Below, piece by piece: positions 1 through 26,471 of a DNA stretch of 43,959 nt. The stretch's first letter is position 1. The number at the start of each line of letters is the position of its first letter. Where the stretch lies: UHGV virus genome UHGV-1376934. One strand, given 5' to 3'. The DNA is from a virus. The position numbers and the translations under genes are program-made. The notes under the pieces are model-generated. The model saw only the letters and a program-made list of their open reading frames with translations, ran no database searches and was not told the origin of the DNA.

Positions 1-20
1 ATAATATTGTTTATGGGAAG
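1..20 (+). repeat. 20-bp core repeat ATAATATTGTTTATGGGAAG, copy 1 (direct).
   Basis: Identical to 43925-43944 and to the reverse complement of 731-750 (19 of 20 match). Confidence 0.8.
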
Positions 21-398
21 AGCATTTTTGGCGTTTCCGGAAATGTGCGGAAGTATGCGAGTATAACAAAAACCCTTACATCATCTACCGGTAAAGTCAA
101 TTTTACGGGAGGTGATTGCTCCATATATGCTTATTATGTGAGTATTAGCAATATTGGATTCACACCCCTCTATGCATCAATTGTAGGTGAACACGCTGAT
201 TACACCCCTATTCATGGAGGAGGAGATGGATGGGGGTTTGCTTATGCTGAAAGAAGCAACCGAAGTAGTTATGGAACCCAATTTTTATATTGGCTCAATG
301 GAGGATATTATTCCTTAAACTCCAGCTTGGTAAGACTCCCAGCGGGCTCAATAAACGGGGGAAGAAATATGACAGTTAAAGTATTTGGTTACTATTAA
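1..398 (+). CDS. Tail-fibre-like variable C-terminal cassette A. It is 5'-partial: the reading frame is open from the window edge and in frame from nt 3, giving N-I-V-Y-G-K-S-I-F-G-V-S-G-N-V-R-K-Y-A...
   Basis: ORF 45..398 has no stop upstream to the window edge. Its N-terminal junction peptide NIVYGKSIFGV(S/A)GNVRKYA matches cassette B and the 3' end of the gene at 43684. It ends ...FGYY*. Confidence 0.5.
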   Translation, partial: NIVYGKSIFGVSGNVRKYASITKTLTSSTGKVNFTGGDCSIYAYYVSISNIGFTPLYASIVGEHADYTPIHGGGDGWGFAYAERSNRSSYGTQFLYWLNGGYYSLNSSLVRLPAGSINGGRNMTVKVFGYY

Positions 399-750
399 TA
401 ATATCCGGCGACACAGTACCAGACAGTACCATTTTCAATACAAGGTAAGACAGCATTAGTACTATTTACATGCCAAGCACCACTCATATTAAAATCAAAT
501 CGGTAACCCCCTCCGGCACAGTGGGCAGGATTACCAGACCAAAATCCCACTAGGGCACCATCTGTCCAGGCAATACACGATACATTAAACCCTGTTGGTA
601 TTGTCGCCTTATACATTGACCTTCCAGGGTCATATCCAGCACTGATAGAGATGCTTGCAGTACCAGAGGATGATACGGTACTGTTTTTCATGGCATACTT
701 GCGTACATTGCCAGCCACACCAAATATAGACTTCCCATAAACAATAGTAT
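395..750 (-). CDS. Tail-fibre-like variable C-terminal cassette B, in inverted orientation. It has no ATG or RBS of its own upstream of the conserved junction, so it is probably expressed only after recombination onto the constant region.
   Basis: The minus-strand frame is open from 769 down to 395. The translation D-T-I-V-Y-G-K-S-I-F-G-V-A-G-N-V-R-K-Y-A... matches the cassette A junction. It ends ...AGYY*, converging on cassette A at the palindrome TATTAATA. The only start candidate is GTG at 718, with no convincing SD. Confidence 0.45.
731..750 (-). repeat. 20-bp core repeat, inverted copy (ATACTATTGTTTATGGGAAG on the minus strand).
   Basis: Reverse complement of 731-750 matches 1-20 at 19 of 20 positions. 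It lies exactly at the constant/variable junction of cassette B. Confidence 0.8.
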
Positions 751-826
751 CGTAAGATAGGAAACATACCTATACTTGAAACCATCATTGATAAACAGTA
801 TATCACAAAGAAAGGAATGATGAAAC

Positions 827-1171
827 ATGAAAGCATTAGTAATCTATGACGACACCGGCCGTATATGGACGATTGTCTACGGTGAGGAACAGGTTCCCCA
901 GGGCCTGCAGTGCATATGGGTGGACATCCCCGATGGTGCACAGCTGGACCATATTAATGTGACGGATGAGGACAACCCGCAGCCAGTCTTTAGTTATCTG
1001 CCTGAATCAGATATTGGACGTCTGCAGGAACAGGTGGTAAGTCTGGGGGACCAACTCACAGAGGCACAGTTGGCGCTTACCGAGCAGTATGAGGCCAATC
1101 TGGCGCTGGCTGAAGAGATAACCAACACTCAGATGGCACTGACAGAAATCTATGAAGGAATGGAGGTGTAA
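827..1171 (+). CDS. Hypothetical phage protein, 114 aa, acidic. It sits in the XkdW-like position between the fibre and holin.
   Basis: ATG is preceded by aaagaaagga. Coding strand and position sit in the late/tail-fibre region. Confidence 0.55.
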   Translation: MKALVIYDDTGRIWTIVYGEEQVPQGLQCIWVDIPDGAQLDHINVTDEDNPQPVFSYLPESDIGRLQEQVVSLGDQLTEAQLALTEQYEANLALAEEITNTQMALTEIYEGMEV

Positions 1172-1174
1172 GGT

Positions 1175-1288
1175 ATGGCGAGCTATATGGCAACTGTGTA
1201 TGCGGACCTTATCCGCAAGGGCAGGAAAACGATTGAACAGGTCCCAGAGAAATTAAGGGCGGAAGTCGAGGCGGCACTCAATGCTTAG
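1175..1288 (+). CDS. XkdX-like small phage protein, 37 aa.
   Basis: ggaggtg RBS 6 nt upstream of ATG. Protein MASYMATVYADLIRKGRKTIEQVPEKLRAEVEAALNA shares the motif KG(R/K)KT..QVP with the next gene. Confidence 0.5.
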   Translation: MASYMATVYADLIRKGRKTIEQVPEKLRAEVEAALNA

Positions 1289-1328
1289 ACTGCTGCTCTT
1301 TTTATTATTGAGAAAGGAGGCAGACACC

Positions 1329-1457
1329 ATGGCAGTCATTTATGCAACCCTGATTGTAAAGGGGAGAAAGACATTCGGGCAGGTCCCGGATAAAATTAAG
1401 GACCAGGTGCGCCAGGTACTGGTTGACTTGGAATGTGAAGAACTGATTACAGAGTAG
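1329..1457 (+). CDS. XkdX-like small phage protein, 42 aa, tandem paralog of 1175..1288.
   Basis: gaaaggagg RBS. Protein MAVIYATLIVKGRKTFGQVPDKIKDQVRQVLVDLECEELITE. Confidence 0.5.
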   Translation: MAVIYATLIVKGRKTFGQVPDKIKDQVRQVLVDLECEELITE

Positions 1458-1466
1458 GTGAGGTAC

Positions 1467-1895
1467 ATGAAAATGAAGAAAGATATTATATGCGCTATTA
1501 CTGGTATGGCCGCAGCGGCGGGAGTAAAGCTTTTTGGTGGCTGGACTCCGACACTGAGTATCGTGCTCATACTTATGGGACTGGACCTGATAGCGGGATT
1601 CCTGGTGGCCGTGGTGTTTAAAAAGTCACCAAAATCAGAGAGCGGTGCGGCCAGTTCAAATGCCATGCTTAAAGGACTGTGCAAGAAGTTCATGATGGTG
1701 TGTCTATTGGCGGTAGCCCATCAGCTTGATGTGGCCCTGGGGGTGGATTACATTATGCTGGCAGCTACATATGGATTTATCGCAAATGAGGCATTGTCGA
1801 TTGTGGAGAATGCCGGACTCATGGGTATTGTCAAATCCGATGTTATAGTGAATGCCATTGAAGTGTTAAAAGGAAAATCGCAGAAAACAGAGTAA
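1467..1895 (+). CDS. Holin of the phiLC3 / toxin-secretion (TcdE-like) family, about 142 aa with three predicted TM segments.
   Basis: Hydrophobic segments AITGMAAAAG, LSIVLILMGLDLIAGFLVAVV and FMMVCLLAVA, with a charged C-terminus. aggtgagg is upstream of ATG 1467. The ORF track offers an alternative GTG start at 1458. Confidence 0.7.
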   Translation: MKMKKDIICAITGMAAAAGVKLFGGWTPTLSIVLILMGLDLIAGFLVAVVFKKSPKSESGAASSNAMLKGLCKKFMMVCLLAVAHQLDVALGVDYIMLAATYGFIANEALSIVENAGLMGIVKSDVIVNAIEVLKGKSQKTE

Positions 1896-1927
1896 TTGCG
1901 ATATCGCAACAGCAGAAAGGCAATGCC

Positions 1928-2272
1928 ATGAGGACATTAAGATTCAAAGTATCCGGCCAGGAGCTAATAAGGGCTCCTGGCTGTGATTTTAGTAACATAA
2001 TTGCCGGTACATCCGGCTACCTGCAGGCGGCGTTTGAGTTCGGCCCGGACTGGGACGGGACTGTCCGGGTGGCGGCCTTCTATCCGTACTTGCAGTCCCA
2101 GGAGGTTGGCAGACTGATAACAGACGGTGTCTGCATTGTCCCGGATGAGGTGACGGCCTATGACACATTTAAAATCGGGGTGGTTGGCCAGCATGAGAAT
2201 GGCCAGAGGATTACCACCAATCTGATTACGATTAAGCAGGAGAGGGGGAGTGGACAGGCATGGCAACAGTAA
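1928..2272 (+). CDS. Hypothetical phage protein, 114 aa.
   Basis: ORF on the coding strand of the late operon, overlapping the start of the next gene. Confidence 0.5.
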   Translation: MRTLRFKVSGQELIRAPGCDFSNIIAGTSGYLQAAFEFGPDWDGTVRVAAFYPYLQSQEVGRLITDGVCIVPDEVTAYDTFKIGVVGQHENGQRITTNLITIKQERGSGQAWQQ

Positions 2273-4179
2273 ATGAAATACTGGCAGCACAGGCATATGC
2301 AGCTGTTGACGAGGCATGGACCAAGGATAATAATTACCCATCCTTCCATCTGTACGTGGAGCTGGAGTATGTTCCGGTCACCAACAAGCGCATTGCGGAT
2401 TTCAACGACCAGATATCTGTGCGTGGCGAGGAAAATGCTCAGTTCGTGGGCTTCCAGCTGCCGCGGTACGATGACGGCCTGGACCTTACCGTCCAGCGCC
2501 TGTATATCCACTACCAGACGGTCCATGGGGGTGGGGACAGCGTACCCTGCAATGTGTCCTGGTCGGACAATTATGTCAGGATGTGCTGGCAGGTACCGGC
2601 ACAGGCAACTCAGGAACCTGGGTCAATCCAGATGATGATATATGCGACCGGCACTGACAGTGTAGGTGAGTGGACCATTTGGAAGACCCTGCCGGCAACG
2701 TATGATATCCATGACGGACTGGAAATCGGAGGAGGCATCCTGGAACCAGACCCGTCTTGGTATGAACAGTTCGTGCAGCAGATGGAATCCAGGGTAACCA
2801 CTGCCCAGGGATACGCCAATGACGCCCAGGCCAGTAAGACAGCCGCCTCCGGTTCTGCCACGGCTGCCGCTGAGTCTGCTGCTGCATCCGCCAAGGCATT
2901 GGAGGATAACAAGGCCTACGTGGAGTCTCAGAAGGATACCTTTGTGGGCTACAACAAGCGTGAGACCGACCTCAAGTACGCCAATGCTCTCATAGGCTCC
3001 GCGTCCGGAACCGAACGGGTCAGTATAGAGGATGCGTGGGAGGCCCCAATACCCGGCCTGGAGATAGCCGGGAGGAGCGAGCAGGGAGCTGACCCCAGCC
3101 CGGATAATCCGCAGGAGATTGTGAGTACGGATGTCACAGCGGTGAGGGTGACGGGAGCGCAGGTTTTGCCATATCCATATAAGGATACTACAAAAACCGA
3201 AAATGGAATTACCTTTACAGACCTTGGTGATGGGGGAATTAAAGTTACCGGAACCTCTACAGCCACATATGCAACTTTCATGCTTAAGCGTATTACAGAT
3301 GATGTGATTCTTCCGCCGGGCATATACGCAAAAAATGCGCCCATTGAATCTGGATTGTTTTTTAATATAAACAGATATAAAAATGGCGCATATGACACAA
3401 CAATTGTGGCCTCCAATGTTAATACTTTCGATACATCATCATGGGATTACACCCAATATGAATATCAGATAATCTTGCAAGTTAGAGATGCCGGAGTAAC
3501 ATTAAACACAACGTTTTATCCAATGATTAATCAGTCCAAAACCGCGCACATCTCCCTCACGGAGCCGTTGCATGGCATCGGGGATGCAAGGGACCATATC
3601 ACATGCCGGGATGGTGTGTGGGGAATTGAAAGAAGAAGGAATTTAGCGGAATATAATGGCATAACAAATCGTGTGGAATCGTTTATTGCATCCTGGGATG
3701 AACGGTATCCAGGTTTTGCACACTGTAATTTGACTAAAATGGATGACTGGTTAGTAGGACAAAAAAATTTCATGTCTGATTTATTTGCTTGCACCACAGA
3801 AGACAATCGAAATTTTAGCAACACGGAATTATCATGTCACACATCAAATAACGGATTACAGTTATTTTTATCTTTTGATTTGGCAGGAATTATTAATGCT
3901 GACGATACTGCAACACGCATCACAAAAGTTAATACTTGGATACAATCCCATAATTTCACGGTTGAGTATGATAAAGCTATCGCTACTTGGACACCCCTCC
4001 CAGCCGATACCCAAGCAGCCCTTAATGCCTTGACCACCTACAAAGGCCAGACAACTATCATGGTGACGGCAGATGGGACGGAACCGGATGTGGGGCTGGA
4101 GTATGTGCAGGATACCAGGGCGGTGGTAGCAGATTTACAGGCGCAGATTGACGCGATTAGAAATGGAGGTACGACATGA
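2260..4179 (+). CDS. Putative tail/baseplate receptor-binding-like structural protein, 639 aa. The N-terminal domain is followed by an Ala-rich coiled segment. The gene is mosaic, with a low-GC block at about 3150-4030.
   Basis: Ala-rich segment AAAESAAASAKALEDNKAYVESQ is typical of BppU-like fibre/baseplate proteins. The gene lies between holin and endolysin. A sharp compositional shift inside the gene is visible by eye. Confidence 0.55.
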   Translation: MATVNEILAAQAYAAVDEAWTKDNNYPSFHLYVELEYVPVTNKRIADFNDQISVRGEENAQFVGFQLPRYDDGLDLTVQRLYIHYQTVHGGGDSVPCNVSWSDNYVRMCWQVPAQATQEPGSIQMMIYATGTDSVGEWTIWKTLPATYDIHDGLEIGGGILEPDPSWYEQFVQQMESRVTTAQGYANDAQASKTAASGSATAAAESAAASAKALEDNKAYVESQKDTFVGYNKRETDLKYANALIGSASGTERVSIEDAWEAPIPGLEIAGRSEQGADPSPDNPQEIVSTDVTAVRVTGAQVLPYPYKDTTKTENGITFTDLGDGGIKVTGTSTATYATFMLKRITDDVILPPGIYAKNAPIESGLFFNINRYKNGAYDTTIVASNVNTFDTSSWDYTQYEYQIILQVRDAGVTLNTTFYPMINQSKTAHISLTEPLHGIGDARDHITCRDGVWGIERRRNLAEYNGITNRVESFIASWDERYPGFAHCNLTKMDDWLVGQKNFMSDLFACTTEDNRNFSNTELSCHTSNNGLQLFLSFDLAGIINADDTATRITKVNTWIQSHNFTVEYDKAIATWTPLPADTQAALNALTTYKGQTTIMVTADGTEPDVGLEYVQDTRAVVADLQAQIDAIRNGGTT

Positions 4180-4949
4180 GTAAGACAGCATTAGGATTAA
4201 TTCAGCATTGCAAGGACAAGCTGGGCACACCCTATGTCTACGGCGCCAAAGGCGAGGTCCTTACCCGGGCCATCCTGGACAGACTTGCCCGGGAGAACCC
4301 AGGTACATACACATCAACTTATAAGGCTAAGGCGGCCAGGTACATAGGCCAGCGCTGCACGGACTGCTCCGGCCTCATCAGCTGGTACACCGGGTGCATC
4401 CGCGGCAGCTACAACTACCATGACACAGCCGTGGAGCGGGTAGGCATCGACCACCTGAATGAGTCCATGGTCGGCTGGGCGGTCTGGAAGCCGGGCCACA
4501 TCGGGGTGTACATAGGTGATGGATACTGCATTGAGGCCAAAGGCATCAATTATGGGACCATCAAGTCCAGAGTGACCGCCACACCCTGGCAGAAGGTGCT
4601 TAAGCTGTGCGACATAGATTACAATCCGGTACAGGTGAAATATGCCCAGGGGTTTCAGCCGGCGGCAGACGGGCAGCGCTGGTGGTATCAGTTTGCAGAT
4701 GGCAGCTATGCGGCCAACGGTTGGTACTGGCTCCGGGAGGCCACGGATGGAACCTGTGGTTGGTATCTGTTTGATATTGCGGGATATATGCTAACAGGTT
4801 ATCAAACAGATGCATCAGGTGAGAGTTTTTTGCTTTGTCCAGTCAAGGGCAGTGACGAGGGTAAGTGCATGATTACGGATGCCAGGGGAGTGCTCCGGAT
4901 TGCCGAAGAGTATGACATGATTAACCGGCGGTACGTGTTTGAGTGGTAA
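4176..4949 (+). CDS. Endolysin: NlpC/P60-family cysteine peptidase domain plus C-terminal cell-wall-binding repeats.
   Basis: Catalytic-type motifs CTDCSGLISW and GHIGVYIGDG. Aromatic repeats GWYWLREATDGTCGWYLFDIAGYMLTGY. Start overlaps the upstream stop (ATGA). Confidence 0.8.
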   Translation: MSKTALGLIQHCKDKLGTPYVYGAKGEVLTRAILDRLARENPGTYTSTYKAKAARYIGQRCTDCSGLISWYTGCIRGSYNYHDTAVERVGIDHLNESMVGWAVWKPGHIGVYIGDGYCIEAKGINYGTIKSRVTATPWQKVLKLCDIDYNPVQVKYAQGFQPAADGQRWWYQFADGSYAANGWYWLREATDGTCGWYLFDIAGYMLTGYQTDASGESFLLCPVKGSDEGKCMITDARGVLRIAEEYDMINRRYVFEW

Positions 4950-5377: not shown

Positions 5378-6841
5378 CTATGATATATAAAAGTGAATAT
5401 ATAAATGCCCCTTTTTGCGGTCAAAAACAATGTCCTTGACAATTTTACGGAGGGCATTTCCTTTTGTTTCATAATCTATATTTGAGTCTGAAATGATTTC
5501 GTGTACATGAGCAACCTGACGCATGACATCCTCTTTGCTGGGGACTACGTCAGGAGCCTGTTCGGCCTGACGATGCAGCCGTTCTGCATCAGCCATGAGT
5601 TCCTCCCGCTCTGATTTAAGGCGGAGCTTATTCTGCTTATATTCCTCCAGCGTGTCTATCTCATTCTCATAAGCCTCCCTGATGCGCCGTTCCTTGACTT
5701 CCAGGTGCGCCAGGGCCTCCTGGATGGCAACTTCTTCTGCATTGACGGTATCATTGGTTTTCCGGATGTATTCATATTCCAATTCATTTGTTGCCAGAAC
5801 TTCCTCCAGTGATTCAATCACAGCCTTCTCCGCCAGTCGGACTGACAGACAGCAGGAACCTTCATGGAATCCCTTGGCATATTTCCAGCACTGGAAGAAG
5901 TCAGGACGTTTCTTCTGGTCGTTGGAGCGGTTATAACCAAGGCTGCTGCCGCACACGCTGCATTTCAACATGCCGGACAGCCAATGGGCGTTGCTGGAAA
6001 CTTCACGGCGTTTCTGAGGGCGGTACTCTTTTTCGAGCCGCTTCTGGACATCGTCAAAGATGGACGTAATGGATGTTCGAATCTCATGTGTCCCTTGAAA
6101 TGTGTATCCGTTCCATACTACTTCCCCAATATAGAAACGATTAGTAAGAATACGGTTAATTCCACGGCGGTCGAACCGATTGCCGCGGCGGGTTCGATAT
6201 CCCTTTGAGTTAGTAGCCCTGGCCGTGGCGGTCATATCCTTGCCACTATGGTATGTTTGGAAGATATATTCCACGATGGCGTAGGATTTTTCATCAACAA
6301 TGAAAGGCTTGCCTTCTCCTACAGCTCGGTAGCCAAGGCAGGGAGTGGACTGATATCCTTCGCGGAGAGCCTTTTCAGTCATGCCGCGGATTACTTCACC
6401 AGAGAGGTTGATGGAATAGTATTCATCAAACCATTCAATGATGGTCTCAATCAGCCGGCCGAACATGCCTTCCATGATTGGCTCAGACACGCTCTTGATT
6501 TCCACGCCACATTTTTTTCGAAGGATGCCCTTGTAAAAGGTACTTTCCTCCTGGTTTCTGGCGAACCGAGAGAACTTCCAAAGATATAACCGCTTGAATG
6601 GTGCAGGCCGTTGCGATTTCGCAAAGGCAATCATGCGCTGGAACTCAGGCCGGTTATCTGCCTTCCGGCCAGATATCCCCTTCTTTTCGATGAATATGTA
6701 TTCTTTCGGGATTATAAAGCCATCTGCTTTGGCCGCATCCATGATGACGCGAATCTGGGCGTCCGGGGACAGCTCCGTCTGGTCATCTGTGCTGACGCGG
6801 ACGTAGGCGGCGCCGATTTCCAGGGTGGTTGGTGTGGTCAT
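5378..6841 (-). CDS. Large serine recombinase (phage integrase). It has a resolvase-type N-terminal catalytic domain, a recombinase domain and a zinc ribbon.
   Basis: N-terminus AAYVRVSTDDQ carries the catalytic Ser motif. Cys cluster CSVCGSSL...C...C. C-terminal coiled coil. 487 aa. Adjacent to the repressor module. Confidence 0.85.
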   Translation of the reverse strand: MTTPTTLEIGAAYVRVSTDDQTELSPDAQIRVIMDAAKADGFIIPKEYIFIEKKGISGRKADNRPEFQRMIAFAKSQRPAPFKRLYLWKFSRFARNQEESTFYKGILRKKCGVEIKSVSEPIMEGMFGRLIETIIEWFDEYYSINLSGEVIRGMTEKALREGYQSTPCLGYRAVGEGKPFIVDEKSYAIVEYIFQTYHSGKDMTATARATNSKGYRTRRGNRFDRRGINRILTNRFYIGEVVWNGYTFQGTHEIRTSITSIFDDVQKRLEKEYRPQKRREVSSNAHWLSGMLKCSVCGSSLGYNRSNDQKKRPDFFQCWKYAKGFHEGSCCLSVRLAEKAVIESLEEVLATNELEYEYIRKTNDTVNAEEVAIQEALAHLEVKERRIREAYENEIDTLEEYKQNKLRLKSEREELMADAERLHRQAEQAPDVVPSKEDVMRQVAHVHEIISDSNIDYETKGNALRKIVKDIVFDRKKGHLYIHFYIS

Positions 6842-7042: not shown

Positions 7043-7762
7043 CTAAAATGTGTGGGCTTGATTTAGATATACCTCATAGCTATCATAATCAACATCATAA
7101 GGAGATGCTTTTTCGGTAACCGTTTTACCAGCCTCAACATTAGCAATATCCTGCGGATAATCTACATGAGCAATGTCATTACCCTTATAGTAGACCACGA
7201 TATATTCGATTTCATCAATGGAGACACTGTCATTATTTGTTATTTCAATGATTATACCGTCTTCACCTTGGTTTGAGGAAACAGACACTTTATCAGCATG
7301 GTTCTGGTATGATGGATAGCAATTTAATTTAATATCACTGTTTATCTCAAAGTCGTCATACTCTGGGGGGGCACTTAACTTTGAAACAACCGTGCTACCT
7401 GGTAAAACCATGTCGTGCCCATCATCGGCTGTATCTATCGTGTTTCCTGAACCGTTTTTGTAGTTAATCTGGACACTCAATTCATCAATTGTAGTATTGC
7501 TATTATTAGTTATAAATAGGCAAACCTCACCGTCAAGCGTTTTTTGAGGCGTTATTTCTAATTGCGCCTTTATAGCGTCTGGGTCATCCTCGCTTTTGGT
7601 GGCGATGGTCTCACTCGTAGCAACGCCCTTGGAAGTTTCACTTGGATTTTCTGAGGCCGTTTGCGCAGATGCTACTGGTTCAGCAGTAGTATGCTCCGCT
7701 TTCCCTCCACAAGCGGTCATCATGCTAATTGCTAACGCAGTTGTAATAATGATTTTTTTCAT
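7043..7762 (-). CDS. Lipoprotein, 239 aa, between integrase and repressor (Ltp/Sie-like position). Has an internal two-domain repeat.
   Basis: Signal peptide plus lipobox MKKIIITTALAISMMTAC. RBS agagga. Repeated segments ITNNSNTTIDELSVQINYKNGSGN and ITNNDSVSIDEIEYIVVYYKGND. The gene is AT-rich. Confidence 0.65.
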   Translation of the reverse strand: MKKIIITTALAISMMTACGGKAEHTTAEPVASAQTASENPSETSKGVATSETIATKSEDDPDAIKAQLEITPQKTLDGEVCLFITNNSNTTIDELSVQINYKNGSGNTIDTADDGHDMVLPGSTVVSKLSAPPEYDDFEINSDIKLNCYPSYQNHADKVSVSSNQGEDGIIIEITNNDSVSIDEIEYIVVYYKGNDIAHVDYPQDIANVEAGKTVTEKASPYDVDYDSYEVYLNQAHTF

Positions 7763-7838
7763 ATACTTTTCCTCTTTTCTTTTATTTATTAGGCTATGAG
7801 CCTTCAAATTAATAACGTTTTTTGTGAGAATTTCCCCC

Positions 7839-8813
7839 TTAATCCATAAGTTTACCAATTACTTTACCCATACATACAACATTATCTTCTTCATGAATGG
7901 GGATATTAGGATATTCACCATTCTGGGAGATAAGCTCATTTTTTCCAAGTTCTTTGATAAAAGCGCTTCCATTTACAACGAACACCCCGATATCTCCTAC
8001 TTGCATTTCCATATTCTGACTAACCAAAGCAATATCACCGTCAATAAAACTGGGTTCCATGCTGTCGCCATTTACATCAAGAGCAAAGTCTGCGCCGTGA
8101 TATTCGGGAATATCAGGCAGTTCTATTTCATCTTCCGCTTCATTGCCTAATATAAAAATACCGGTTCCGGCAGACACACCGCCGCGGTAGTAGGGGATAA
8201 CAAACAGGCCAGTATTATATTTAGGTTGAAACTCTATAATAGTTGAGCTTCCTATATTTTTTGCATTAGTATCTTGATATTCTGGTATCTTAGTTAGTAA
8301 GGTTACCTGCTCAAGAGCCTTATCTTGTCCAGCGCTGTTTAATAAGCCGAAACTGCCAAGCAGCTGTCTTACTCTTTCTCTTTCATATAAATCAGATATT
8401 TTACGATGAAGGCCATTGAAAGCTTTGGCTGCTCTTTCCGTCACTATAGGCAATTCTTCTTTGATAGCCTCATGTTCTTCTTTGGTTAAATCGTAATCAT
8501 TGTTCAATAATTTTTCTAATGCAGAGTTGAAGGGACAGTCATCGGGCGTTGTGGGAAAATTTAAAGAACGGCGCCCCATTGGAACATCATAGCCCATAAG
8601 CCAGGTTTCAGACACACCTAACGCCAGCGCTAACACTGTAAGTTTCTCCTGCCCGGGTGACACTTTTCCAGAAACATATTGAGATAAATCGTTTCTTCCT
8701 AATTTAACATCAAATTGTTTGCAAAAAGGTTCTGCACGTCTCAATATATCCGCTTGCCGTAACTCATATCGATTCATTGCCTCCTTTAATCTGTCGGCTG
8801 TTGTTGCTTTCAT
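7839..8813 (-). CDS. CI-like repressor: XRE-family HTH plus a C-terminal S24 (LexA-like) peptidase domain.
   Basis: HTH region QEKLTVLALALGVSETWL. S24 motif GDSMEPSFIDGDIALV with a downstream Lys (FIKELGK). RBS gagaggtg before ATG 8813. Divergent from cro. Confidence 0.8.
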   Translation of the reverse strand: MKATTADRLKEAMNRYELRQADILRRAEPFCKQFDVKLGRNDLSQYVSGKVSPGQEKLTVLALALGVSETWLMGYDVPMGRRSLNFPTTPDDCPFNSALEKLLNNDYDLTKEEHEAIKEELPIVTERAAKAFNGLHRKISDLYERERVRQLLGSFGLLNSAGQDKALEQVTLLTKIPEYQDTNAKNIGSSTIIEFQPKYNTGLFVIPYYRGGVSAGTGIFILGNEAEDEIELPDIPEYHGADFALDVNGDSMEPSFIDGDIALVSQNMEMQVGDIGVFVVNGSAFIKELGKNELISQNGEYPNIPIHEEDNVVCMGKVIGKLMD

Positions 8814-8849
8814 GATGCACCTCTCTTTCATATAGCATTGTATCATGAA

Positions 8850-12103: not shown

Positions 12104-12838
12104 ATGAACGTATATGAGAAACTACAGCATGTCCAGTCCGGTCTGAAAGCTCCGAAGAACCAGTACAACAAGTTCGGGAACTACCATTACAGGAACTGTG
12201 AGGACATCCAGGAGGCGGCCAAGCCCCTCCTGCAGGAGGTCAAGGCAGCGCTGGTGGTCGGAGACGAACTGGTCATGATAGGAGAACGGTATTACATCAG
12301 GGCCACGGCCCGGTTCGTGGATTGTGAATCCGGCGAGACAGTGGAGAACACGGCCTATGCAAGGGAGGAACAGGAAAAGAAGGGCATGGATGTGTCACAG
12401 GTGACAGGGAGCACCAGCAGTTATGCCAGGAAATATGCATTAAATGGTCTGTTCTGCATTGACGACGTGAAGGATGCGGACAACCAGGACAATACTGCCG
12501 GTAAGGCCCAGGCAGCCGGAAAGGGAACCAGGGATAATACGAAGCCAGCCGGGAAGACGAAGGCAGGTAAGGGAACGGATGTAGGAGCGGGGCAGACAAC
12601 AGCTCCGGCAGAAGAGGGAGATAAGGCAGCACCAACAGGGGCAGGGATGGTCACCAAGGCCATGATTGCGTCCATCACGTCCCTGATAGAAAAGTACAGC
12701 TCCAAAGGGCTTAAGATGGAGAAAATTCTTAAGATGTACCAGATTAAAGATATCGTGGAGATGACCGTGGACCAGTACAGGGACTGTATGGACAAGCTCA
12801 AATTGTACGAGAAGGCAGATAAGGAGGGGGCAGCGTGA
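12104..12838 (+). CDS. ERF-family single-strand annealing protein (recombinase).
   Basis: N-terminal signature LKAPKNQYNKFGNYHYRNCEDIQEAAKPLL resembles the ERF family. Followed by an unstructured Gly/Ala/Lys-rich tail. Immediately upstream of ssb. Confidence 0.65.
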   Translation: MNVYEKLQHVQSGLKAPKNQYNKFGNYHYRNCEDIQEAAKPLLQEVKAALVVGDELVMIGERYYIRATARFVDCESGETVENTAYAREEQEKKGMDVSQVTGSTSSYARKYALNGLFCIDDVKDADNQDNTAGKAQAAGKGTRDNTKPAGKTKAGKGTDVGAGQTTAPAEEGDKAAPTGAGMVTKAMIASITSLIEKYSSKGLKMEKILKMYQIKDIVEMTVDQYRDCMDKLKLYEKADKEGAA

Positions 12839-13263
12839 ACAGTGTGCAGTTAGTAGGAAGGCTGACCAGGGACCCGGAAGTGAGGTATTCAGATGGAGGC
12901 TCCACCGTGGCCAAATTTACCCTGGCAGTAGACCGGCGGTTTAAGAAAGATGGCGGAGATGATGCGGATTTTATTTCTTGTGTTGCGTTCGGAAAGACGG
13001 CCGAATTCCTGGAAAAATGGTTCCGGAAGGGACAGCGCCTGGGATTGACCGGCCGCATCCAGACCGGTTCCTATGTTAACCAGGAGGGGACCAAGGTCTA
13101 TACCACCAATGTAGTAGTGGAAAATGTGGAGTTTGTGGATAGTAAGGGGGCATCTGCAGAAAATGACGGACCGCAGCAGCATCCTACGCCTACAAGTGCC
13201 ATTGGTGATGGCTTCATGAACATCCCGGATGGAGTGGAGGATGATGGTCTGCCCTTTAATTGA
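12835..13263 (+). CDS. ssb: Single-stranded DNA-binding protein (SSB).
   Basis: OB-fold N-terminus NSVQLVGRLTRDPEVRYSDGGSTVAKFTLAVDRRF. The acidic C-terminal tail ends DDGLPFN (SSB tip motif). Confidence 0.85.
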   Translation: MNSVQLVGRLTRDPEVRYSDGGSTVAKFTLAVDRRFKKDGGDDADFISCVAFGKTAEFLEKWFRKGQRLGLTGRIQTGSYVNQEGTKVYTTNVVVENVEFVDSKGASAENDGPQQHPTPTSAIGDGFMNIPDGVEDDGLPFN

Positions 13264-13787
13264 CCAGAGGTGATTACTTGAACATACAGATTGACAGCCG
13301 AGAGAAGGCCCGCGCCATCCAGAAGATTGTGGCGGAGTTTGACCGCCAGGGCGTGGACCATTTCGTATCAAAATTATATGTCGGGGATTATATGAACTAT
13401 GATAATCCCCGTTTGATTATAGACAGGAAACAGAACCTGACGGAGCTCTGCAGCAATGTCTGCCAGGGACATAACCGTTTCCGGGATGAGATGCTGAGGG
13501 CCCAGGAGCACGGAATCAGCATGATTATCCTGTGCGAGCATGGCAAGGGGGTGGAGTGTCTGGAGGACGTAATCTGGTGGGATAACCCGCGCCGGCATAA
13601 ACGCTTCCAGGACCAAAAGACAGGACGGTGGATAGAAAGGGAGACCAATGCGACCACTGGGGATAAACTGTATAAGATTCTGTGTACCTTCCAGCGCAAG
13701 TATGGATGCCGGTTCCTGTTCTGCGAAAAGAAGGATACCGGTAAACGGATAATTGAGCTGCTGGGCGGTGATGGCCATGACCAGTGA
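13260..13787 (+). CDS. ERCC4-type (XPF/Mus81-like) nuclease-domain protein.
   Basis: Motifs IQIDSREK ... YVGDY ... IDRKQNLTEL resemble the ERCC4 nuclease core. Located in the replication/recombination module. Confidence 0.5.
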   Translation: MTRGDYLNIQIDSREKARAIQKIVAEFDRQGVDHFVSKLYVGDYMNYDNPRLIIDRKQNLTELCSNVCQGHNRFRDEMLRAQEHGISMIILCEHGKGVECLEDVIWWDNPRRHKRFQDQKTGRWIERETNATTGDKLYKILCTFQRKYGCRFLFCEKKDTGKRIIELLGGDGHDQ

Positions 13788-14268
13788 GGAGATTAAGGCA
13801 GCCTACAGCATGAGGGATGTGGTGGAACGGTATGGTTTCCAGCCAAACCGCGCCGGTTTCATCCATTGCCCATTCCACGGCGGTGACCGGGAGCCATCCT
13901 TAAAGGTGTATGACCGTGACTTTCATTGCCATGCCTGCGGCGCCCATGGTGACATCTTTGATTTTATCATAATGATGGATGAGGTCTCCTTCAAGGAGGC
14001 ATTCATGAGCCTTGGCGGGGAATATCAGAAGCCTACATTTTCCAGCCGGCTGGCGGTTTACCGGGCGCAGAAACAGCGCGCGATGCGCCAGAAGGAGGCG
14101 GAGCGAGAGCGGGAGAAGCGCAGGCTGAACAATATGCTTATAAGTATCTACAGGGCCTATATGGAGCGCTCTGAGCCCCTGAGTGATGTCTGGTGTGATT
14201 GTTATAACGCCCTGCAGTACCAGCTCTATGTACAGGCAGGATTATGCGGATTGGAAGCGAGGTGGTAG
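13777..14268 (+). CDS. CHC2 zinc-finger (DnaG-primase-type Zn-binding) protein.
   Basis: CPFHGGDREPSLKVY...FHCHACGAHGDIFDF is the CHC2 signature. The ORF track shows alternative upstream starts at 13753 and 13771. Confidence 0.6.
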   Translation: MTSEEIKAAYSMRDVVERYGFQPNRAGFIHCPFHGGDREPSLKVYDRDFHCHACGAHGDIFDFIIMMDEVSFKEAFMSLGGEYQKPTFSSRLAVYRAQKQRAMRQKEAEREREKRRLNNMLISIYRAYMERSEPLSDVWCDCYNALQYQLYVQAGLCGLEARW

Positions 14269-14269
14269 C

Positions 14270-16150
14270 ATGGTGCCGTTGAAGGAGCTGACGGCCGAGA
14301 CAGTATTGTCGGATGATGTGCTGACAGAGGTATTTGACCAGGAGGACGAGCTGTACAAGTCAAGGCTGCTGCTGTCGCTGGAGGACCGGGCCGGGGAGCT
14401 GGGGGTAAAGAAGAAGTTCCAGGAACTGGTCAAGGCCTATAAACGTGTGGAGCGGGAGATGCGGCGCCGGGAACGGGATAAGAAAAGCCAGCCCTGCACG
14501 CTGGAGCAATGGACCAATTTTGAAGGACCCTATAACCGGATGCAGTGCAAGGAGTGGATTGCCGGCGAGGGAGGTATATTCCTCCAGAATCCCACCACGG
14601 GATATACGGACATCCTGGCCTGCTACCATCCCATTCTGCCAGTGGAACGCCTGCGTAACCTGGAGACCGGTGAGGAGCAGATAAAACTGGCCTACAAGAG
14701 GAATGGCCGTTGGGATGAACTCATCGTGCCCAAAACAATGGTGACATCCGCCAACAAGATTGTGAGCCTGTCCGGACGGGGGATTGCAGTCACCAGCGAG
14801 AATGCAAAATATCTGGTACGTTATCTGGCCGATGTAGAAAACGCGAATGAGGAACATATCGCGGTGCAGTATTCCACATCGAAACTGGGTTGGGTCAGAG
14901 GAGGATTCCTGCCTTACGACACGGACATTGTGTTTGATGGGGATGTGCGGTTCCGCCAGATAGCGGAGAGTATAGGGCCTTCCGGCAACCGGAATAAGTG
15001 GTACGAGCATGTAGTGCAACTGCGCAGTCGGGGGAGGATGGAAGTTAAATTTATGTTGGCAGCATCGTTTTCCAGTGTGTTGGTGCAGCCCCTGGGAGGA
15101 TTGCCATACTTTGTGGACCTCTGGGGCGAAACGGAAGGAGGAAAGACTGTGGACCTGATGCTGGCGGCATCTGTATGGGCAGACCCGGATGAAAGCGCCT
15201 ATATCAAAGACTACAAGGGAACAGAGGTTGGCCTGGAGGCCATCTGTGACCTGCTGAATAACCTTCCCCTTATCCTGGATGATTCCAGCAAGAAGAACCG
15301 GAAGATAGAGGATAATTTCGAAGGTCTGGTCTATGACCTGTGTTCGGGGAAGGGGAAGACACGTTCCAATAAGGAACTGGGATTAAACCGGGAAAACCAC
15401 TGGAAGAACTGTATTCTGACCAATGGGGAACGGCCTTTAAGCTCTTATGTGACCCAGGGAGGCGCCATCAACCGCATCCTGGAGATTGAATGCGGTGAGC
15501 GTGTGTTTGAGGACCCGGGGTACACTGCAGAACTGGTAAAGCATAATTATGGCTATGCAGGACAGGAATTTGTGGATGTCGTTAAGAACATTGGCGTGGA
15601 CTGTATCCGAGAAATACAGCAGGGTTTCCTGCGACAGCTGGCAGATGATGAAAAGATGCAGAAGCAAAGCCTGTCCCTGTCCATCGTTCTGACAGCTGAC
15701 AAACTGGCAACGGATTATCTATTTAAGGATGCCCATTACATAAGCCTGGATGAGGCCAGGGAGGTCCTGATAGACCGCAATGAACTTTCTGATAATGAGA
15801 GATGTTACCAATTCGTCCTGGACAAGGTGGCCATGAATCCGGCCAGGTTTGATAACAAGGTGGAGAACGTGGAAAAGTGGGGCACGATTGAGAATGGATA
15901 TGCCATCATCTACACCACGGCTTTTACGGCGCTATGCAAGGAAGGCGGCTTTTCGCGTACATCGTTCTTGTCTTGGGCGAACAGGAAAGGCGTCATCCAA
16001 GTGGAAGGGAACGGAAAACGGATGGATAAGGTGAAGAGCTTCAACGGAAATAAAATCCGGTGTATCTTCCTGAAACTGAACGATAACACGGATAAGGATG
16101 GATTTGTGAAGGTGGACGATGATAGTCAGGAACGGCTTCCATTCAACTGA
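14270..16150 (+). CDS. Primase-helicase-type P-loop NTPase (DUF927/VirE, P4-alpha-C-terminus-like replication protein).
   Basis: Walker A GETEGGKT. Large ORF after the CHC2 zinc-finger gene. gaggtgg RBS before ATG 14270. Confidence 0.65.
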   Translation: MVPLKELTAETVLSDDVLTEVFDQEDELYKSRLLLSLEDRAGELGVKKKFQELVKAYKRVEREMRRRERDKKSQPCTLEQWTNFEGPYNRMQCKEWIAGEGGIFLQNPTTGYTDILACYHPILPVERLRNLETGEEQIKLAYKRNGRWDELIVPKTMVTSANKIVSLSGRGIAVTSENAKYLVRYLADVENANEEHIAVQYSTSKLGWVRGGFLPYDTDIVFDGDVRFRQIAESIGPSGNRNKWYEHVVQLRSRGRMEVKFMLAASFSSVLVQPLGGLPYFVDLWGETEGGKTVDLMLAASVWADPDESAYIKDYKGTEVGLEAICDLLNNLPLILDDSSKKNRKIEDNFEGLVYDLCSGKGKTRSNKELGLNRENHWKNCILTNGERPLSSYVTQGGAINRILEIECGERVFEDPGYTAELVKHNYGYAGQEFVDVVKNIGVDCIREIQQGFLRQLADDEKMQKQSLSLSIVLTADKLATDYLFKDAHYISLDEAREVLIDRNELSDNERCYQFVLDKVAMNPARFDNKVENVEKWGTIENGYAIIYTTAFTALCKEGGFSRTSFLSWANRKGVIQVEGNGKRMDKVKSFNGNKIRCIFLKLNDNTDKDGFVKVDDDSQERLPFN

Positions 16151-16899: not shown

Positions 16900-17440
16900 G
16901 ATATCAATGCCAGGAGCATGTATGGTGATGGACATGGAGGAGGGCCAGGCACGGATGACGTTCCACAAGATGGCAGAGTTAATGTGGTTGATTGGTGAAA
17001 AGAGCCATAAGCCGGCGGAAGAAGCAGATATGGAACCAGAAGAGGTTCCGGAACCGGTGAGAGAAGTCTATCCAGGCCAGAAGAAACAGGAGGCTGAGAC
17101 AGTGATGGAAACTGGGGTTCCAGAAAAGGAAAACGAAGAACCGGCGCCTAAAATTATCTCCGCAGGGTATGGAGGATATCTGTACATGAAATGCTCTGCC
17201 TGTGGAAAGACCAGGGGCTTCTGTGCCAAGACGCGGCTGAATCATTACCGGTGTGAATGTGGGGCCGTAACGAGGATGGAAAGTATGGTCCCTCTGTATA
17301 TGAGATGTGAGTGCGGAAGACAGGCCAGGTATCTGACCAATATGACAGAGGATGAATTTGACATAACCTGCTATGACTGTGGGGCGCCGGTGGCAGTGCG
17401 GTGGAACGATAAGAAGGGGCAGTATGAGCCGATGTGCTGA
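16889..17440 (+). CDS. Cys-rich protein with multiple zinc-ribbon motifs, 183 aa.
   Basis: CSACGKT...CECG...CECGRQ...CYDCGAP give four CxxC pairs. Acidic linker. Confidence 0.5.
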   Translation: MKVRISMPGACMVMDMEEGQARMTFHKMAELMWLIGEKSHKPAEEADMEPEEVPEPVREVYPGQKKQEAETVMETGVPEKENEEPAPKIISAGYGGYLYMKCSACGKTRGFCAKTRLNHYRCECGAVTRMESMVPLYMRCECGRQARYLTNMTEDEFDITCYDCGAPVAVRWNDKKGQYEPMC

Positions 17441-19449
17441 TGGAGGGGAAGCCAATGGATGAAGTAATGCAGTGGTATGAACGTGACATGACCCTCGAGC
17501 AGGCCATGGACGGCATAGAGACCAACATGCGGTCATCAGTCAGGAACTACATAGCGGTTGGGTTTTACCTAAAGGCCATCCGGGACAGAAAACTCTTCCA
17601 GGAGGCTGGATATAAGAATTTTGAGGAATTCGTCCGTGACAAATACGACCGCGATAAAGGATGGGCCAGCCGATGCATCAAGGTCAATGACCAGCTGAGT
17701 AAGGACGGGAACAGCCCCGTCCTGGCGGAAGGGTATAGGGATTACAGTGTCTCACAACTGGTAGAACTGGCGTATCTGACCGAAGAACAGCGGACTCTGG
17801 CCAATCCGGATATGACAGTGAAGCAGCTGCAGGCTATTCGGAAGCCGGAACCTCAGCTGGAAAAGGAAGTTGTGACATTACAACCGGAGCTGAAGGAACA
17901 TGAGGGAGAGCTGAGAGAAAAAGTTGTAACATCACAACTGGATGAAGGAGCTGAAAAAGAGCCGGAAGTAATACATTTCACTGCTGGAAACAGAACGATA
18001 GACAATGCTTATGGAGCTACTATTGCCGCGGTTGTAGGAGCATACCTGGATGCCGGATATGCTAGACCCGAAAAAGAGTGTGAAGTTATTGCTTTTGGAC
18101 TATCATACAAAGTTCTTAAACGACAGGACGTTACAGTTTTTTACACGGATTTGGGACGGACCGTATTCGACGTAGAAAATACCCGTCTGGAGGAAGAATA
18201 CCAATTCCGACACAGAATAAAGCCAGAGCCGGCCCCGCAGGATGAAGAACCAGAGCCTGAGCCGGAACTACCAAAGACAGAGCAGACCCAGTTAGAGAAG
18301 TCCGGTAAGTGCATCCACCGGCCAGAATTTGACTGCACCCTGGAGGAGGCCCATAAGCTCATCCCGGGAACTGGGGAGGACTGCAGCCGGATGTGCTGCT
18401 GGGAATGCATCAGGCGCGGTGACTGTGAGTTGGAATGTTACAGTTCACAGCGGCGCCCGGAACATCTGGAACCTCCAAAGGCAGAGCCGGATTGTCAATC
18501 ACTGGATGCTGCGGATGTGCAGCAGGTGAAAACAGCCATCCCTTCCCAGGAGGAATGTATTCTGGACTTCTATCAGCATCACATGTCCATGCCGTGTGCG
18601 CAGGCCGTCAATGACAGGAATGCGAAACTGCTGAGGCAGGAGCTGATAATCAATCACGGGGAACCCCATAACAGCGGGTCAACGGAGTACGGCTTTTATC
18701 AATGCGGCCCGGAACGGATTCATTTTCAGGATAATATGTGCGAGACATTTCTGAGCTTGACCTGGGGTAAGTACGTAAAGGAATTACTCAACCTCTTGGG
18801 AAGTGCTGAGGATGAGGCATCTGAACATGAAAACGATGTCCCCGATATGCCAGAATGCCAGGAACCCGTGATTGATGGTGAATTCACGGAGATTCCAGAA
18901 ACGGAGGAGGACATCCAGGACCCGGAGGAACCCATGACCGAGCTGCAGATTGCCCGGGATGAACTGGAACGTGCAAAAAAACTGCTTAATGCCGGACTGG
19001 GATGCGGGGTGGACGAAAACGACACCCATATCCGCCGGCTGAAAATAAAGGTTTGCGCCCTGGCCAGCTATGTGTGCGATTTGGATGACATCGTGAATCC
19101 GCCGCCGCAGCCAGAGCAGCCGGAACTGCCGGTGCTTAAGAACAATGACCAACGGGCTGCCTTCGTGGATGCATATGAGATGTGGCCGTTATGGATTGAG
19201 ACGAAACAGACCGGAGAGCGGTACTATCGGTATGACCTGGAGGACGGGACCAGCATGGTGGTCAAGGTATACCACGCAAGGATGTTTGGTGGGTACAAGG
19301 ATGGGAGCTATGAGGCCCAATATTATGATGGCTACGGCCGGCATGAGTACTATCTGCTGCGGGATGGGAAGTTATTCCGGGATTGTGAGACGAACAGGGG
19401 GTTATTGATTGAGAAACTGAAAGAGATTCAGAAGGTGAAGAAAGGATAG
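17440..19449 (+). CDS. Large hypothetical early/middle protein, about 670 aa. It has acidic Pro/Glu-rich linkers, a C-terminal Cys cluster and an internal imperfect tandem repeat at about 17850-17960.
   Basis: Long ORF on the coding strand. The start overlaps the upstream stop (ATGA at 17440). The ORF track offers GTG 17434. Confidence 0.55.
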   Translation: MEGKPMDEVMQWYERDMTLEQAMDGIETNMRSSVRNYIAVGFYLKAIRDRKLFQEAGYKNFEEFVRDKYDRDKGWASRCIKVNDQLSKDGNSPVLAEGYRDYSVSQLVELAYLTEEQRTLANPDMTVKQLQAIRKPEPQLEKEVVTLQPELKEHEGELREKVVTSQLDEGAEKEPEVIHFTAGNRTIDNAYGATIAAVVGAYLDAGYARPEKECEVIAFGLSYKVLKRQDVTVFYTDLGRTVFDVENTRLEEEYQFRHRIKPEPAPQDEEPEPEPELPKTEQTQLEKSGKCIHRPEFDCTLEEAHKLIPGTGEDCSRMCCWECIRRGDCELECYSSQRRPEHLEPPKAEPDCQSLDAADVQQVKTAIPSQEECILDFYQHHMSMPCAQAVNDRNAKLLRQELIINHGEPHNSGSTEYGFYQCGPERIHFQDNMCETFLSLTWGKYVKELLNLLGSAEDEASEHENDVPDMPECQEPVIDGEFTEIPETEEDIQDPEEPMTELQIARDELERAKKLLNAGLGCGVDENDTHIRRLKIKVCALASYVCDLDDIVNPPPQPEQPELPVLKNNDQRAAFVDAYEMWPLWIETKQTGERYYRYDLEDGTSMVVKVYHARMFGGYKDGSYEAQYYDGYGRHEYYLLRDGKLFRDCETNRGLLIEKLKEIQKVKKG

Positions 19450-25070: not shown

Positions 25071-25084
25071 GAGGTGAGGGGAAG

Positions 25085-26464: not shown

Positions 26465-26471
26465 AAAGCGC

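Follow-up and report, generated by a model that had tools for sequence, protein, structure and literature searches.

A probable site-specific inversion switch with dif-like crossover sites in the last tail gene of a temperate gut phage

The invertible tail-fibre tips of phages Mu and P1 are textbook material, and in the R64 shufflon asymmetric sites (a conserved spacer and one arm) lie inside a gene whose C-terminus is exchanged by the tyrosine recombinase Rci. Here we describe a related locus in the virus genome UHGV-1376934, analyzed as a single stretch of 43,959 nucleotides (referred to as the window). We conclude that the window is the whole genome of a temperate phage (~44 kb), opened inside the inversion switch of its last tail gene, and that the host is a member of the Lachnospiraceae of the Enterocloster type. 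At this locus the constant N-terminal part of a tail-fibre-like gene ends in a 20-bp site (the core) and is followed by a 710-bp segment, which carries two alternative cassettes, A and B, and is bounded at its far end by an inverted core. A 15-bp spacer, U, forms with one additional core a 35-bp unit that, when it lies on the constant side of the segment, puts the adjoining cassette out of frame (OFF, as opposed to ON). Our overall model, to which we assign a probability of roughly 60%, is a site-specific inversion switch worked in trans by a Xer-family recombinase of the host.

The locus is built like the Mu G/Gin, P1 C/Cin, e14 Pin and p15B Min systems in that a constant fibre part is followed, on one segment, by alternative C-terminal parts arranged tail to tail; as in those systems, the crossover sites lie within coding sequence and the presumed outcome is an alternation of host range. 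Unlike the Gin, Cin, Pin and Min systems, it has no adjacent small (~190 amino acids (aa)) serine invertase, and a Resolvase domain is present only in a 487-aa protein 4.6 kb away. The 26-bp dyad hix/gix/cix site of the Gin and Cin systems (…AAACC NN GGTTT…) is likewise missing from the cores: a scan of the window for the Hin/Gin-type pattern returned matches at chance level and none at the cores, where no dyad symmetry was found beyond ATAA/TTAT. The segment also lacks the second gene of Mu (U/U’), and it differs from Gin-type systems in its single conserved arm, its matched 6-bp spacer, its 35-bp unit with OFF states and its Gram-positive anaerobic host. The likeness to Mu G and P1 C drawn in a preliminary description of the window, which was made from the letters alone, therefore holds for the fibre architecture and for inversion, as seen in natural isomers, but not for the enzyme and its sites, as there are neither a small serine invertase nor hix-like sites.

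The Rin shufflon of Bifidobacterium also occurs in prophages of gut Gram-positive bacteria and combines a constant N-terminus of a receptor-binding protein with C-terminal cassettes of ~100 aa (PMC6109161). Its crossover sites are short, asymmetric and inside the gene, as they are here, and a tyrosine-type mechanism has been proposed for it; unlike our locus, it has an adjacent tyrosine invertase and 3-5 cassettes (PMC6109161). A second bifidophage inversion involves two gene segments and a very short repeat; no recombinase flanks it, and an invertase acting in trans was proposed by its authors (PMC6109161). The two segments, the short repeat and the absence of a flanking recombinase are all shared by our locus, and the Rin shufflon, and especially this second, recombinase-less inversion, are the nearest described cases. 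The bifidophage site sequences (TTCCCTAACCC and CAGGGTTA) are unrelated to the cores, and these systems have no frame-shifting site unit and have not been linked to dif-like sites. R64 resembles the locus in its asymmetric in-gene sites, its single conserved arm and the exchange of a C-terminus, and differs from it in having four segments rather than one, an rci gene, and a PilV adhesin rather than a phage tail protein as the variable product. The name shufflon, which had been suggested for the locus, does not fit what we found, namely a single 710-bp invertible segment with two cassettes and three (sometimes two or four) sites, where the extra sites flank only the 15-bp spacer and no rci or rin gene is present.

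The systems that exploit Xer/dif recombination (i.e. Acinetobacter pdif sites and integrative mobile elements exploiting Xer (IMEX), such as CTX phage) share the 11-6-11 layout of the cores, ...ATAA-6 bp-TTAT.... As in Acinetobacter pXerC/D pairs, active partner sites have the same 6-bp spacer, and, as with C. difficile RecV, the recombinase would be unlinked to its target. Unlike these systems, the sites described here lie in a phage structural gene, where they drive tip switching, and their XerD-side arm is poorly conserved. A survey of gene-altering inversions listed ‘Tail fiber protein’ and ‘phage tail protein’ among the enriched targets, confirmed prophage tail-fibre loci by long reads and noted loci with no recombinase close by (Milman et al. 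2023, PMC9881135). Its confirmed tail-fibre cases carry COG5301 or are Mu-like, and neither the present family nor a 35-bp ON/OFF unit is described there (PMC9881135). Our literature search, which had subscription journals outside its scope, turned up no earlier description of the family, of a tail-fibre switch with dif-like sites or of OFF states added by a unit of site plus spacer.

Core sites, cassettes and natural isomers

The core 20-mer, ATA(A/C)TATTGTTTATGGGAAG, occurs three times in the window, at 43925-43944 (+), 1-20 (+) and 731-750 (-). Exact searching confirmed these positions, which had been given in the preliminary description, and a search with the string ATAMTATTGTTTATGGGAAG that tolerated 3 mismatches still returned exactly three matches; with 0 occurrences in 100 dinucleotide shuffles, none is expected by chance. 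The parts of the switch are listed below in the order in which they follow one another in the circular form, with hyphens separating the left arm, spacer and right arm of a core.

43670-43678, plus strand: ribosome-binding site GGAAAGGAG of the constant part, ahead of the ATG at 43684
43684-43944, plus strand: constant N-terminal part of the tail-fibre-like gene; 87 codons, MGKIW...NANNIVYGK; the last 20 nt are core c1
43925-43944, plus strand: core c1, the outer recombination site on the constant side, ATAA-TATTGT-TTATGGGAAG; crossover site in the ON/OFF isomers
43945-43959, plus strand: spacer U, 15 bp, CTTGTTTTTAGAGTC; U and one core make up the 35-bp frame-shifting unit
1-20, plus strand: core c2, the inner recombination site; abuts 43959 in the real molecule
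21-398, plus strand: cassette A, 125 codons and a stop, SIFGVSGNVRKYA...VFGYY; without a start of its own
64-66, plus strand: TAA closing the frame-shifted constant reading frame; the OFF-A product has 113 aa, the constant part plus LVFRVIILFMGRAFLAFPEMCGSMRV
393-400, no strand assigned: tail-to-tail junction of the cassettes, palindrome TATTAATA; the stops overlap, TAA 396-398 (+) and TTA 395-397 (read on -)
395-730, minus strand: cassette B, 111 codons and a stop, SIFGVAGNVRKYA...VAGYY; inverted and without a start of its own
731-750, minus strand: core c3, the recombination site beside the right flank, ATAC-TATTGT-TTATGGGAAG on the minus strand
751-826, no strand assigned: right flank from c3 to the next gene; non-coding, fixed, kept in all isomers

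Translation places every core in frame at the peptide (N/T)IVYGK, with c1 ending the constant part and c2 and c3 opening into cassettes A and B, each of which ends in GYY and a stop; the cassettes converge on the palindrome TATTAATA, within which their stop codons overlap. In all these points the translations agree with the preliminary description. Cores c2 and c3 also head an imperfect inverted repeat (1-86 / 665-750) that is 72% complementary over 86 nt, in line with the remark that similarity between A and B fades ~60 nt past the core. Cassette B was correctly described as lacking a start in a minus frame that is shut by TAG at 770-772: no ATG is present in that frame between the TAG and the core, and no promoter-like site was found on the minus strand ahead of the cassette. 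Expression of B as an independent gene was rejected on these grounds. Expression after inversion onto the constant part, as had been proposed, is borne out by the occurrence of the segment in both orientations and by the presence in public protein sets of the in-frame fusions of the constant part with A (P0001, 212 aa, 97% identical) and with B (P0003, 198 aa). These results support the conclusion that site-specific inversion at the core links the constant N-terminal part to one or the other of two promoterless cassettes.

IMG/VR was scanned for the core, the matching contigs were oriented with the constant part on the left, and their states were tallied with each contig counted once (L220, L222, L242 and L248 are re-fetches and were not recounted). 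All of this evidence comes from consensus assemblies, and some public contigs are possibly re-assemblies of the same samples. The contigs contain 2-4 cores, spaced at a constant 35 and 726 bp, and share one plan, in which the constant part and a core are followed by the 710-bp segment (A and B tail to tail), then by an inverted core and finally by the right flank. Most of them also have one extra unit, 15-bp U plus a core. The tally was as follows.

ON-A (constant part-core-A, U on the far side): 8 contigs
ON-B (constant part-core-B, U on the far side): 4 contigs
OFF-A (constant part-core-U-core-A): 6 contigs, plus 2 partial
OFF-B (constant part-core-U-core-B): 2 contigs
Two U units: 3 contigs
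No U unit: 6 contigs

All four states occur with the window’s own U allele, as the window is OFF-A, L261 OFF-B, L270 ON-B and L052 ON-A; among these four the constant part is 100% identical and the A-B segment, in either orientation, is 99.4% identical. A sister lineage provides a second inversion pair, in which the segment of L039 matches the reverse complement of that of L076 at 649/656 positions, and a third, more distant lineage (P0059/P0098) also occurs in both orientations (L276 versus L309). The hairpin chimera contig L079 holds both a const-A’ and a const-B’ joint, as expected if both arrangements were present in that sample. Several contigs end exactly at the core, including one from an isolate genome (L050) as well as L016 and L274, and the window likewise starts at a core; an assembler would break there when a sample contains more than one arrangement. 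That 43959 joins position 1 follows from relatives in which constant part, core, U, core and A are contiguous: the joint c1-U-c2-A is unbroken in L011, L071, L264, L268 and L273, and the arrangement const-c1-U-c2-A with the window’s own U allele is unbroken in L261. Judged from these assembled sequences, the isomers provide strong comparative evidence for an inversion that would be recurrent and reversible.

A looser scan with the site pattern found at least three further paired loci, and the matches listed were mostly chance singles. The other IMG/VR matches to the 16-mer TATTGTTTATGGGAAG (many loci, L002-L073) were set aside as coincidental: they come from isolate genomes and belong to a large, unrelated prophage family, in which the 16-mer occurs once per prophage beside a terminator-like hairpin, in a context (TGCGCTTTCCAAATCAATG...) that is identical throughout. 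A close relative (L182:10243-10258, protein P0002) has an exact core with no inverted partner, followed by an acyltransferase gene on the other strand; this solo core was perhaps left behind after a second cassette was lost.

Cassette A is out of frame in the window because the 35-bp unit is not a multiple of three. The resulting reading frame runs through the constant part and LVFRV and continues out of frame to the TAA at 64-66; the corresponding OFF-B stub is found in public protein sets (P0125, 112 aa). The LVFRV tail, which had been read as a third cassette C, is really the 15-bp spacer, directly followed by another core in relatives. Rescue of the OFF state by frameshifting was considered and rejected as unlikely, since the frame that would be needed has a TAG in U (window allele) and the other meets a TAA. 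Three alleles of U are found in relatives (CCTGTTTTTAGAGCC, CCTGTTTTAAGAGCC and the window’s CTTGTTTTTAGAGTC), which have 0, 1 or 2 copies, each copy lying between cores and to one side or the other of the invertible segment; no second copy was found in the window. In L051 the 35-bp unit is duplicated in tandem, and this arrangement, together with that of L074 and L262 (one unit per side), fits slippage or unequal exchange followed by inversion. An origin of U itself by a diverged 35-bp tandem duplication, of the kind that L051 shows, is a guess, as U matches the cassette start at only 8/15 bases.

The states differ in the sites that they need. Conversion between OFF-A and OFF-B requires the inner core, conversion between ON and OFF requires the outer core, and, as long as U is on the far side, ON-A and ON-B are converted into each other through the displaced inner core; all four states are observed, and all three cores must therefore recombine. 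About half of the U-bearing assemblies are OFF, which would be the expectation for free interconversion in a silent prophage. The inner core flanked by U has a better dyad than the others, CCATAA-TATTGT-TTATGG (43945-43959 plus 1-6), and with its perfect 6-bp inverted arms might, on its sequence, be the preferred site. In two relatives (L283:10745/11485 and L284:7673/8413) the inverted partner core has an extra T, ATAA-TGTACT-T-TTATGGGAAG, so that the cassette would be out of frame after inversion; the lineage may thus have an additional, independent route to OFF, or its switch may be decaying.

Position of strand exchange and likeness to dif

Two polymorphisms bracket the point of exchange. 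Position 4 of the core is A beside the constant part and beside U, and C beside the right flank, in every isomer. The second base of TTATGG distinguishes the two cassettes of the L039/L076 lineage (T for one, A for the other) and travels with the cassette. Exchange therefore takes place within TATTGT(T), i.e. 6-7 bp, and the exchanges in ~40 contigs all fall in these same few bases. We regard the sites, the isomers, their consequences for the reading frame and the position of exchange as demonstrated. Across five lineages the sites read ATA(A/C)-N6-TTA(T/C)GGGAAG, where only ATA(A/C) is conserved in the left arm, and the 6-bp spacer is always equal in both partners of one phage and differs between lineages, as follows.

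TATTGT: window type and L081
TATACT: P0059 type
TATTCT: L281
TGTACT: L283

In 5/6 relatives that lack an inverted partner, the region of the junction peptide is encoded by other codons or other residues. Arms that are conserved, a 6-bp centre that varies freely but matches between partners, and exchange within that centre are together the signature of a tyrosine-recombinase core site. The sites are asymmetric and lie inside coding sequence, with a conserved right arm, TTATGGGAAG, and a left arm that is free outside ATA(A/C); their inner ATAA...TTAT around a 6-8-bp centre, with arms of ~11 bp, corresponds to the Xer/dif layout. In the L039/L076 lineage the partner sites share just 7 + 8 identical bases around one mismatch, which argues against homology-driven recombination.

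The Firmicutes dif site has the form ACTTCC(T/G)ATAA-TATATA-TTATGTAAACT, which was checked for B. subtilis and S. aureus (Kono 2011). Read on the other strand, the conserved arm of the core is (A)CTTCCCATAA, followed by six bases and then TTAT, and 10/11 positions of the arm ACTTCCCATAA are identical to those of the XerC-side arm in Firmicutes dif, ACTTCC(T/G)ATAA. A position weight matrix (PWM) was built from 19 Firmicutes dif sites (Kono 2011 Table S1, a list that has no Lachnospiraceae). With the full 28-bp PWM, c1 is the best and c3 the second-best match in the 44-kb genome (11.4 and 7.6 bits), scores that shuffled sequence also reaches (maxima with mean 9.1 and 95th percentile 14.7). With a sub-model made of the XerC arm plus TTAT, which was picked post hoc when the site had already been seen, c1, c2 and c3 are the top three matches at 21.3, 20.4 and 17.8 bits, and c1 and c2 exceed the 95th percentile of the shuffle maxima (18.3; mean 14.8). 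We therefore describe the cores as dif-like rather than as dif.

In the mechanism that we propose, the fixed 87-codon N-terminal part ends in a core, and the downstream 710-bp segment is bounded by the inverted one; recombination in the core flips the segment and fuses either A (212 aa) or B (198 aa) in frame. The 35-bp unit gives a stub of ~113 aa when on the constant side (OFF) and is harmless on the far side (ON). Any plus core can recombine with any minus core, which produces a cycle of ON-A, ON-B, OFF-A and OFF-B, with the window as OFF-A. Strand exchange occurs inside the 6-bp spacer of ATA(A/C)-spacer-TTATGGGAAG and would be catalyzed by a Xer-family tyrosine recombinase that the host would supply in trans and that would act on the dif-like site. 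Switching would take place mainly in the lysogen, and the tips would probably set host range. A more specific version, in which the sites are dif mimics that phages of gut Lachnospiraceae have placed within a tail-fibre gene, host Xer (XerC/XerD or a close paralogue) flips the receptor-binding tip without any invertase of the phage, the 35-bp unit provides a selected OFF position and the module moves freely, is put forward tentatively. If the sites are such mimics, the module could move between siphovirus and myovirus tails because the sites alone suffice.

Several points weigh against this model, besides the shuffle maxima of the full PWM and the post hoc choice of the sub-model. Switching within one clone is something that we infer from assemblies. 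The conservation of the arm is partly imposed by the conserved peptide YGK, and the codon argument does not consist of independent trials because the lineages compared are related. The would-be XerD-side arm matches dif at 5-7/11 positions, and its outer half is not conserved. The host enzyme is a putative one. U is missing from close relatives (L181, L271, L039 and L076), and the OFF states may be useful or simply tolerated. Finally, receptor binding by the tips is putative, and the fold matches are weak: none of the Foldseek matches in PDB falls below E 0.06.

Candidate recombinases

Pfam and PHROG scans covered ~50 window proteins. One site-specific recombinase was found in the genome, and it adjoins the S24/HTH repressor gene (7839-8846).

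5378-6841, minus strand: large serine recombinase, 487 aa, Resolvase + Recombinase + Zn_ribbon_recom (Pfam), probable integrase

No Phage_integrase domain (PF00589) and no small Resolvase invertase was found among the scanned proteins, in agreement with the earlier statement that the window has no small invertase or Rci-like gene and that the large serine recombinase is the only recombinase in it. No Hin/Gin- or Rci-type enzyme was found in the six annotated neighbourhoods either: Phage_integrase and Resolvase domains are absent from the Pfam-annotated ±10-kb surroundings of the module in 6 relatives, 2/6 of which have no inverted partner. In other phage backbones, at loci centred on the lysin gene, no recombinase was found downstream of the module, and the positions are taken instead by ArdA-like genes, a methyltransferase or host genes. 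The module occurs in both siphovirus and myovirus tails (in the latter at the tail-fibre position, after Baseplate_J / Tail_P2_I / Mu_Gp48), and an enzyme shared by all these elements is therefore most simply encoded by the host. Precedents exist: C. difficile RecV is an invertase of the XerC/D family that is unlinked to its targets (PMC2784873), Acinetobacter pXerC/D pairs with identical spacers undergo reversible inversions (PMC9947245), and the bifidophage tail-gene inversion has no flanking recombinase (PMC6109161). We put a host Xer-family tyrosine recombinase acting in trans at close to an even chance; that the enzyme is the housekeeping XerC/XerD pair itself is possible but doubtful.

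The phage’s large serine recombinase might both integrate the phage and flip the segment. It is the sole site-specific recombinase of a complete genome, its gene lies only 4.6 kb from the switch in the circular form, and a 2-bp serine-type crossover within TATTGT(T) is also compatible with the mapping. We nonetheless consider this unlikely, as the module is found in other siphovirus and myovirus backbones that have different downstream regions and no Resolvase gene within 10 kb. The 68 IMG/VR relatives of the recombinase lie on contigs other than those that bear the module, which is a weak test, being a search by shared peptide words in which many contigs are fragments. The substrates of large serine integrases are two unlike sites, attP and attB, whose half-sites are dyad-symmetric, and going back from attL and attR takes a directionality factor. 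Here, by comparison, like sites with only one conserved arm recombine reversibly; there is a single type of site, and every product is again a substrate, as the four interconvertible isomers demonstrate, which is not the attP x attB scheme. No core-like sequence is found near the integrase gene.

An invertase of the phage that has escaped recognition is an improbable source of the activity. For several window proteins no sequence match exists in Pfam, PHROG or PDB, and the candidates are a 271-aa protein of the lysogeny module (7043-7858) and a 671-aa protein (17434-19449), with which PDB sequence searches gave no matches. Against them, the search of other backbones did not find the candidate genes beside the module, Pfam normally detects tyrosine and serine recombinase domains with ease, and the module moves between tail types with only a 52-aa and a 114-aa open reading frame (ORF) linked to it.

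Homologous recombination between the short inverted repeats, occurring occasionally through host RecA or the phage’s ERF/SSB, is very improbable. The phage does encode ERF (12104-12838), SSB and an ERCC4-type nuclease, and the repeats of the window lineage share 16-20 identical bases in their 86-nt, 72% similar stretch. In L039/L076, however, both orientations occur with 7 + 8 shared bases and the exchange lies in a 7-bp block, and exchange in the ~40 contigs is confined to the same few bases. Synonymous positions of the arms are conserved across lineages, partner sites have co-varying spacers, and the site sequence is lost in relatives without a partner.

Least credible is the absence of any present switching, with the isomers as fixed strain variants or assembly artefacts at the repeat and the 35-bp unit as a neutral scar: although the data are consensus assemblies, some perhaps re-assembled from the same samples, and U is dispensable, being missing in the close relatives L181 and L271, the four isomers share a background that is otherwise 99-100% identical, three lineages each occur in both orientations, a hairpin chimera and contig breaks exactly at the core (isolate genome included) are seen, a 20-bp repeat is too short to mislead assemblers with longer k-mers, and an artefact would not create a unique sequence such as that of U.

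The phage, its tail protein and the spread of the module

The switch gene is the last tail gene and lies directly ahead of the lysis genes. The remaining features of the genome are listed below.

827-1171, plus strand: 114-aa gene, always after the module (tblastn), also in relatives without an inverted cassette; no Pfam match
1175-4949: lysis genes (CD1375-like peptide, holin, NlpC/P60-like)
7839-8846, minus strand: S24/HTH repressor
12104-16150: ERF, SSB, ERCC4 nuclease, primase
22979-31544: small terminase, portal, HNH and capsid genes
34856-38593: tape measure, so called from its long ORF and position alone, no Pfam match
41956-43212: glycine-rich tail protein
43533-43691, plus strand: 52-aa ORF overlapping the start of the constant part, no Pfam match; travels with the module across phage backbones

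Relatives were found in genomes of Enterocloster and other Lachnospiraceae as well as in metagenomes of the human gut. Among annotated phage genomes, only the upstream 101-aa ORF (43231-43536) has matches, in Enterocloster bolteae phages, which lack the switch. AlphaFold models of the constant part with A and with B have mean predicted local distance difference test (pLDDT) values of 81 and 80, respectively, and both combine an extended N-terminal part with an all-beta C-terminal domain; Foldseek matches in BFVD to gut-virus proteins are annotated ‘Tail protein’ (E 9e-8). From the gene position, the architecture and these weak matches it is reasonable to regard the product as a tail fibre or receptor-binding protein whose tip can be exchanged, and the cassette tips, modelled as different beta-sandwich domains, are most likely receptor-binding. 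The constant unit (residues ~10-99; window 43684-43950 region) is itself a repeat, present in 3-12 tandem copies in proteins of up to 1,695 aa (P0121-P0133). Its family comprises 5,150 cluster representatives at E <= 1e-3, has no Pfam model and matches PHROG only at E 7e-4. No reverse transcriptase domain, as would mark a diversity-generating retroelement, was found in the scanned window proteins, and the window contains no long direct repeat pair that involves the cassettes.

An identical 231-aa P0059 together with its inverted partner cassette ends the tail genes of siphovirus-type, P2-like and PBSX/Mu-like myovirus tails (L276-L280, L281-L284), and the 52-aa ORF is 77-98% identical in backbones whose upstream glycine-rich gene is 39-57% identical. 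Sequence comparison of this kind indicates that the switch module is exchanged horizontally between tail types. Downstream of it the backbones carry varied cargo. ORFs with a Spo0A C-terminal DNA-binding domain follow right after the lysin in L262:8538-8873 (-) and L268:3308-3853 (-), and in L268 host genes (Mn catalase, ABC transporter) come next; these ORFs are either a phage-borne Spo0A-like regulator or the mark of a prophage at or in spo0A. Three consecutive ArdA-like anti-restriction genes and a Dam-type methyltransferase lie downstream of the lysis genes in L222:12362-19897, where the window has its integrase, and an IS200/IS605 element (Y1 transposase + OrfB/TnpB) lies just after the lysis genes in L276:13116-14749.

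Three further observations concern other genes of the window. The 698-aa tail gene at 38997-41093, which has no Pfam match, contains an internal duplication with a period of ~535 bp and 76-78% identity (repeat pairs 39096-39145 / 39633-39682 and 39407-39451 / 39938-39982). The major capsid protein (30357-31544) has a C-terminal CarboxypepD_reg / Ig-like decoration domain at residues 324-393. There are two SSB-family genes, 12835-13263 and 19458-20093, the second with an N-terminal extension of ~110 aa.

The switch differs from the Mu and P1 systems, in which the invertase is encoded beside the switch, in consisting of just two or three short sites, to which no enzyme is linked. Its sites resemble the site at which the host resolves chromosome dimers, and its 35-bp unit adds OFF to the choice between A and B. 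The locus breaks assemblies, and gene callers report truncated “proteins” such as P0125, so that host-range prediction for prophages that are abundant in the human gut (Enterocloster and relatives) hinges on which isomer happened to be assembled. The natural isomer series already narrows exchange to 6-7 bp, which makes the mechanism directly testable. If a host Xer-family enzyme is responsible, the locus would represent a new phage use of Xer recombination, beyond integration, and would explain how the module hops between unrelated tail types.

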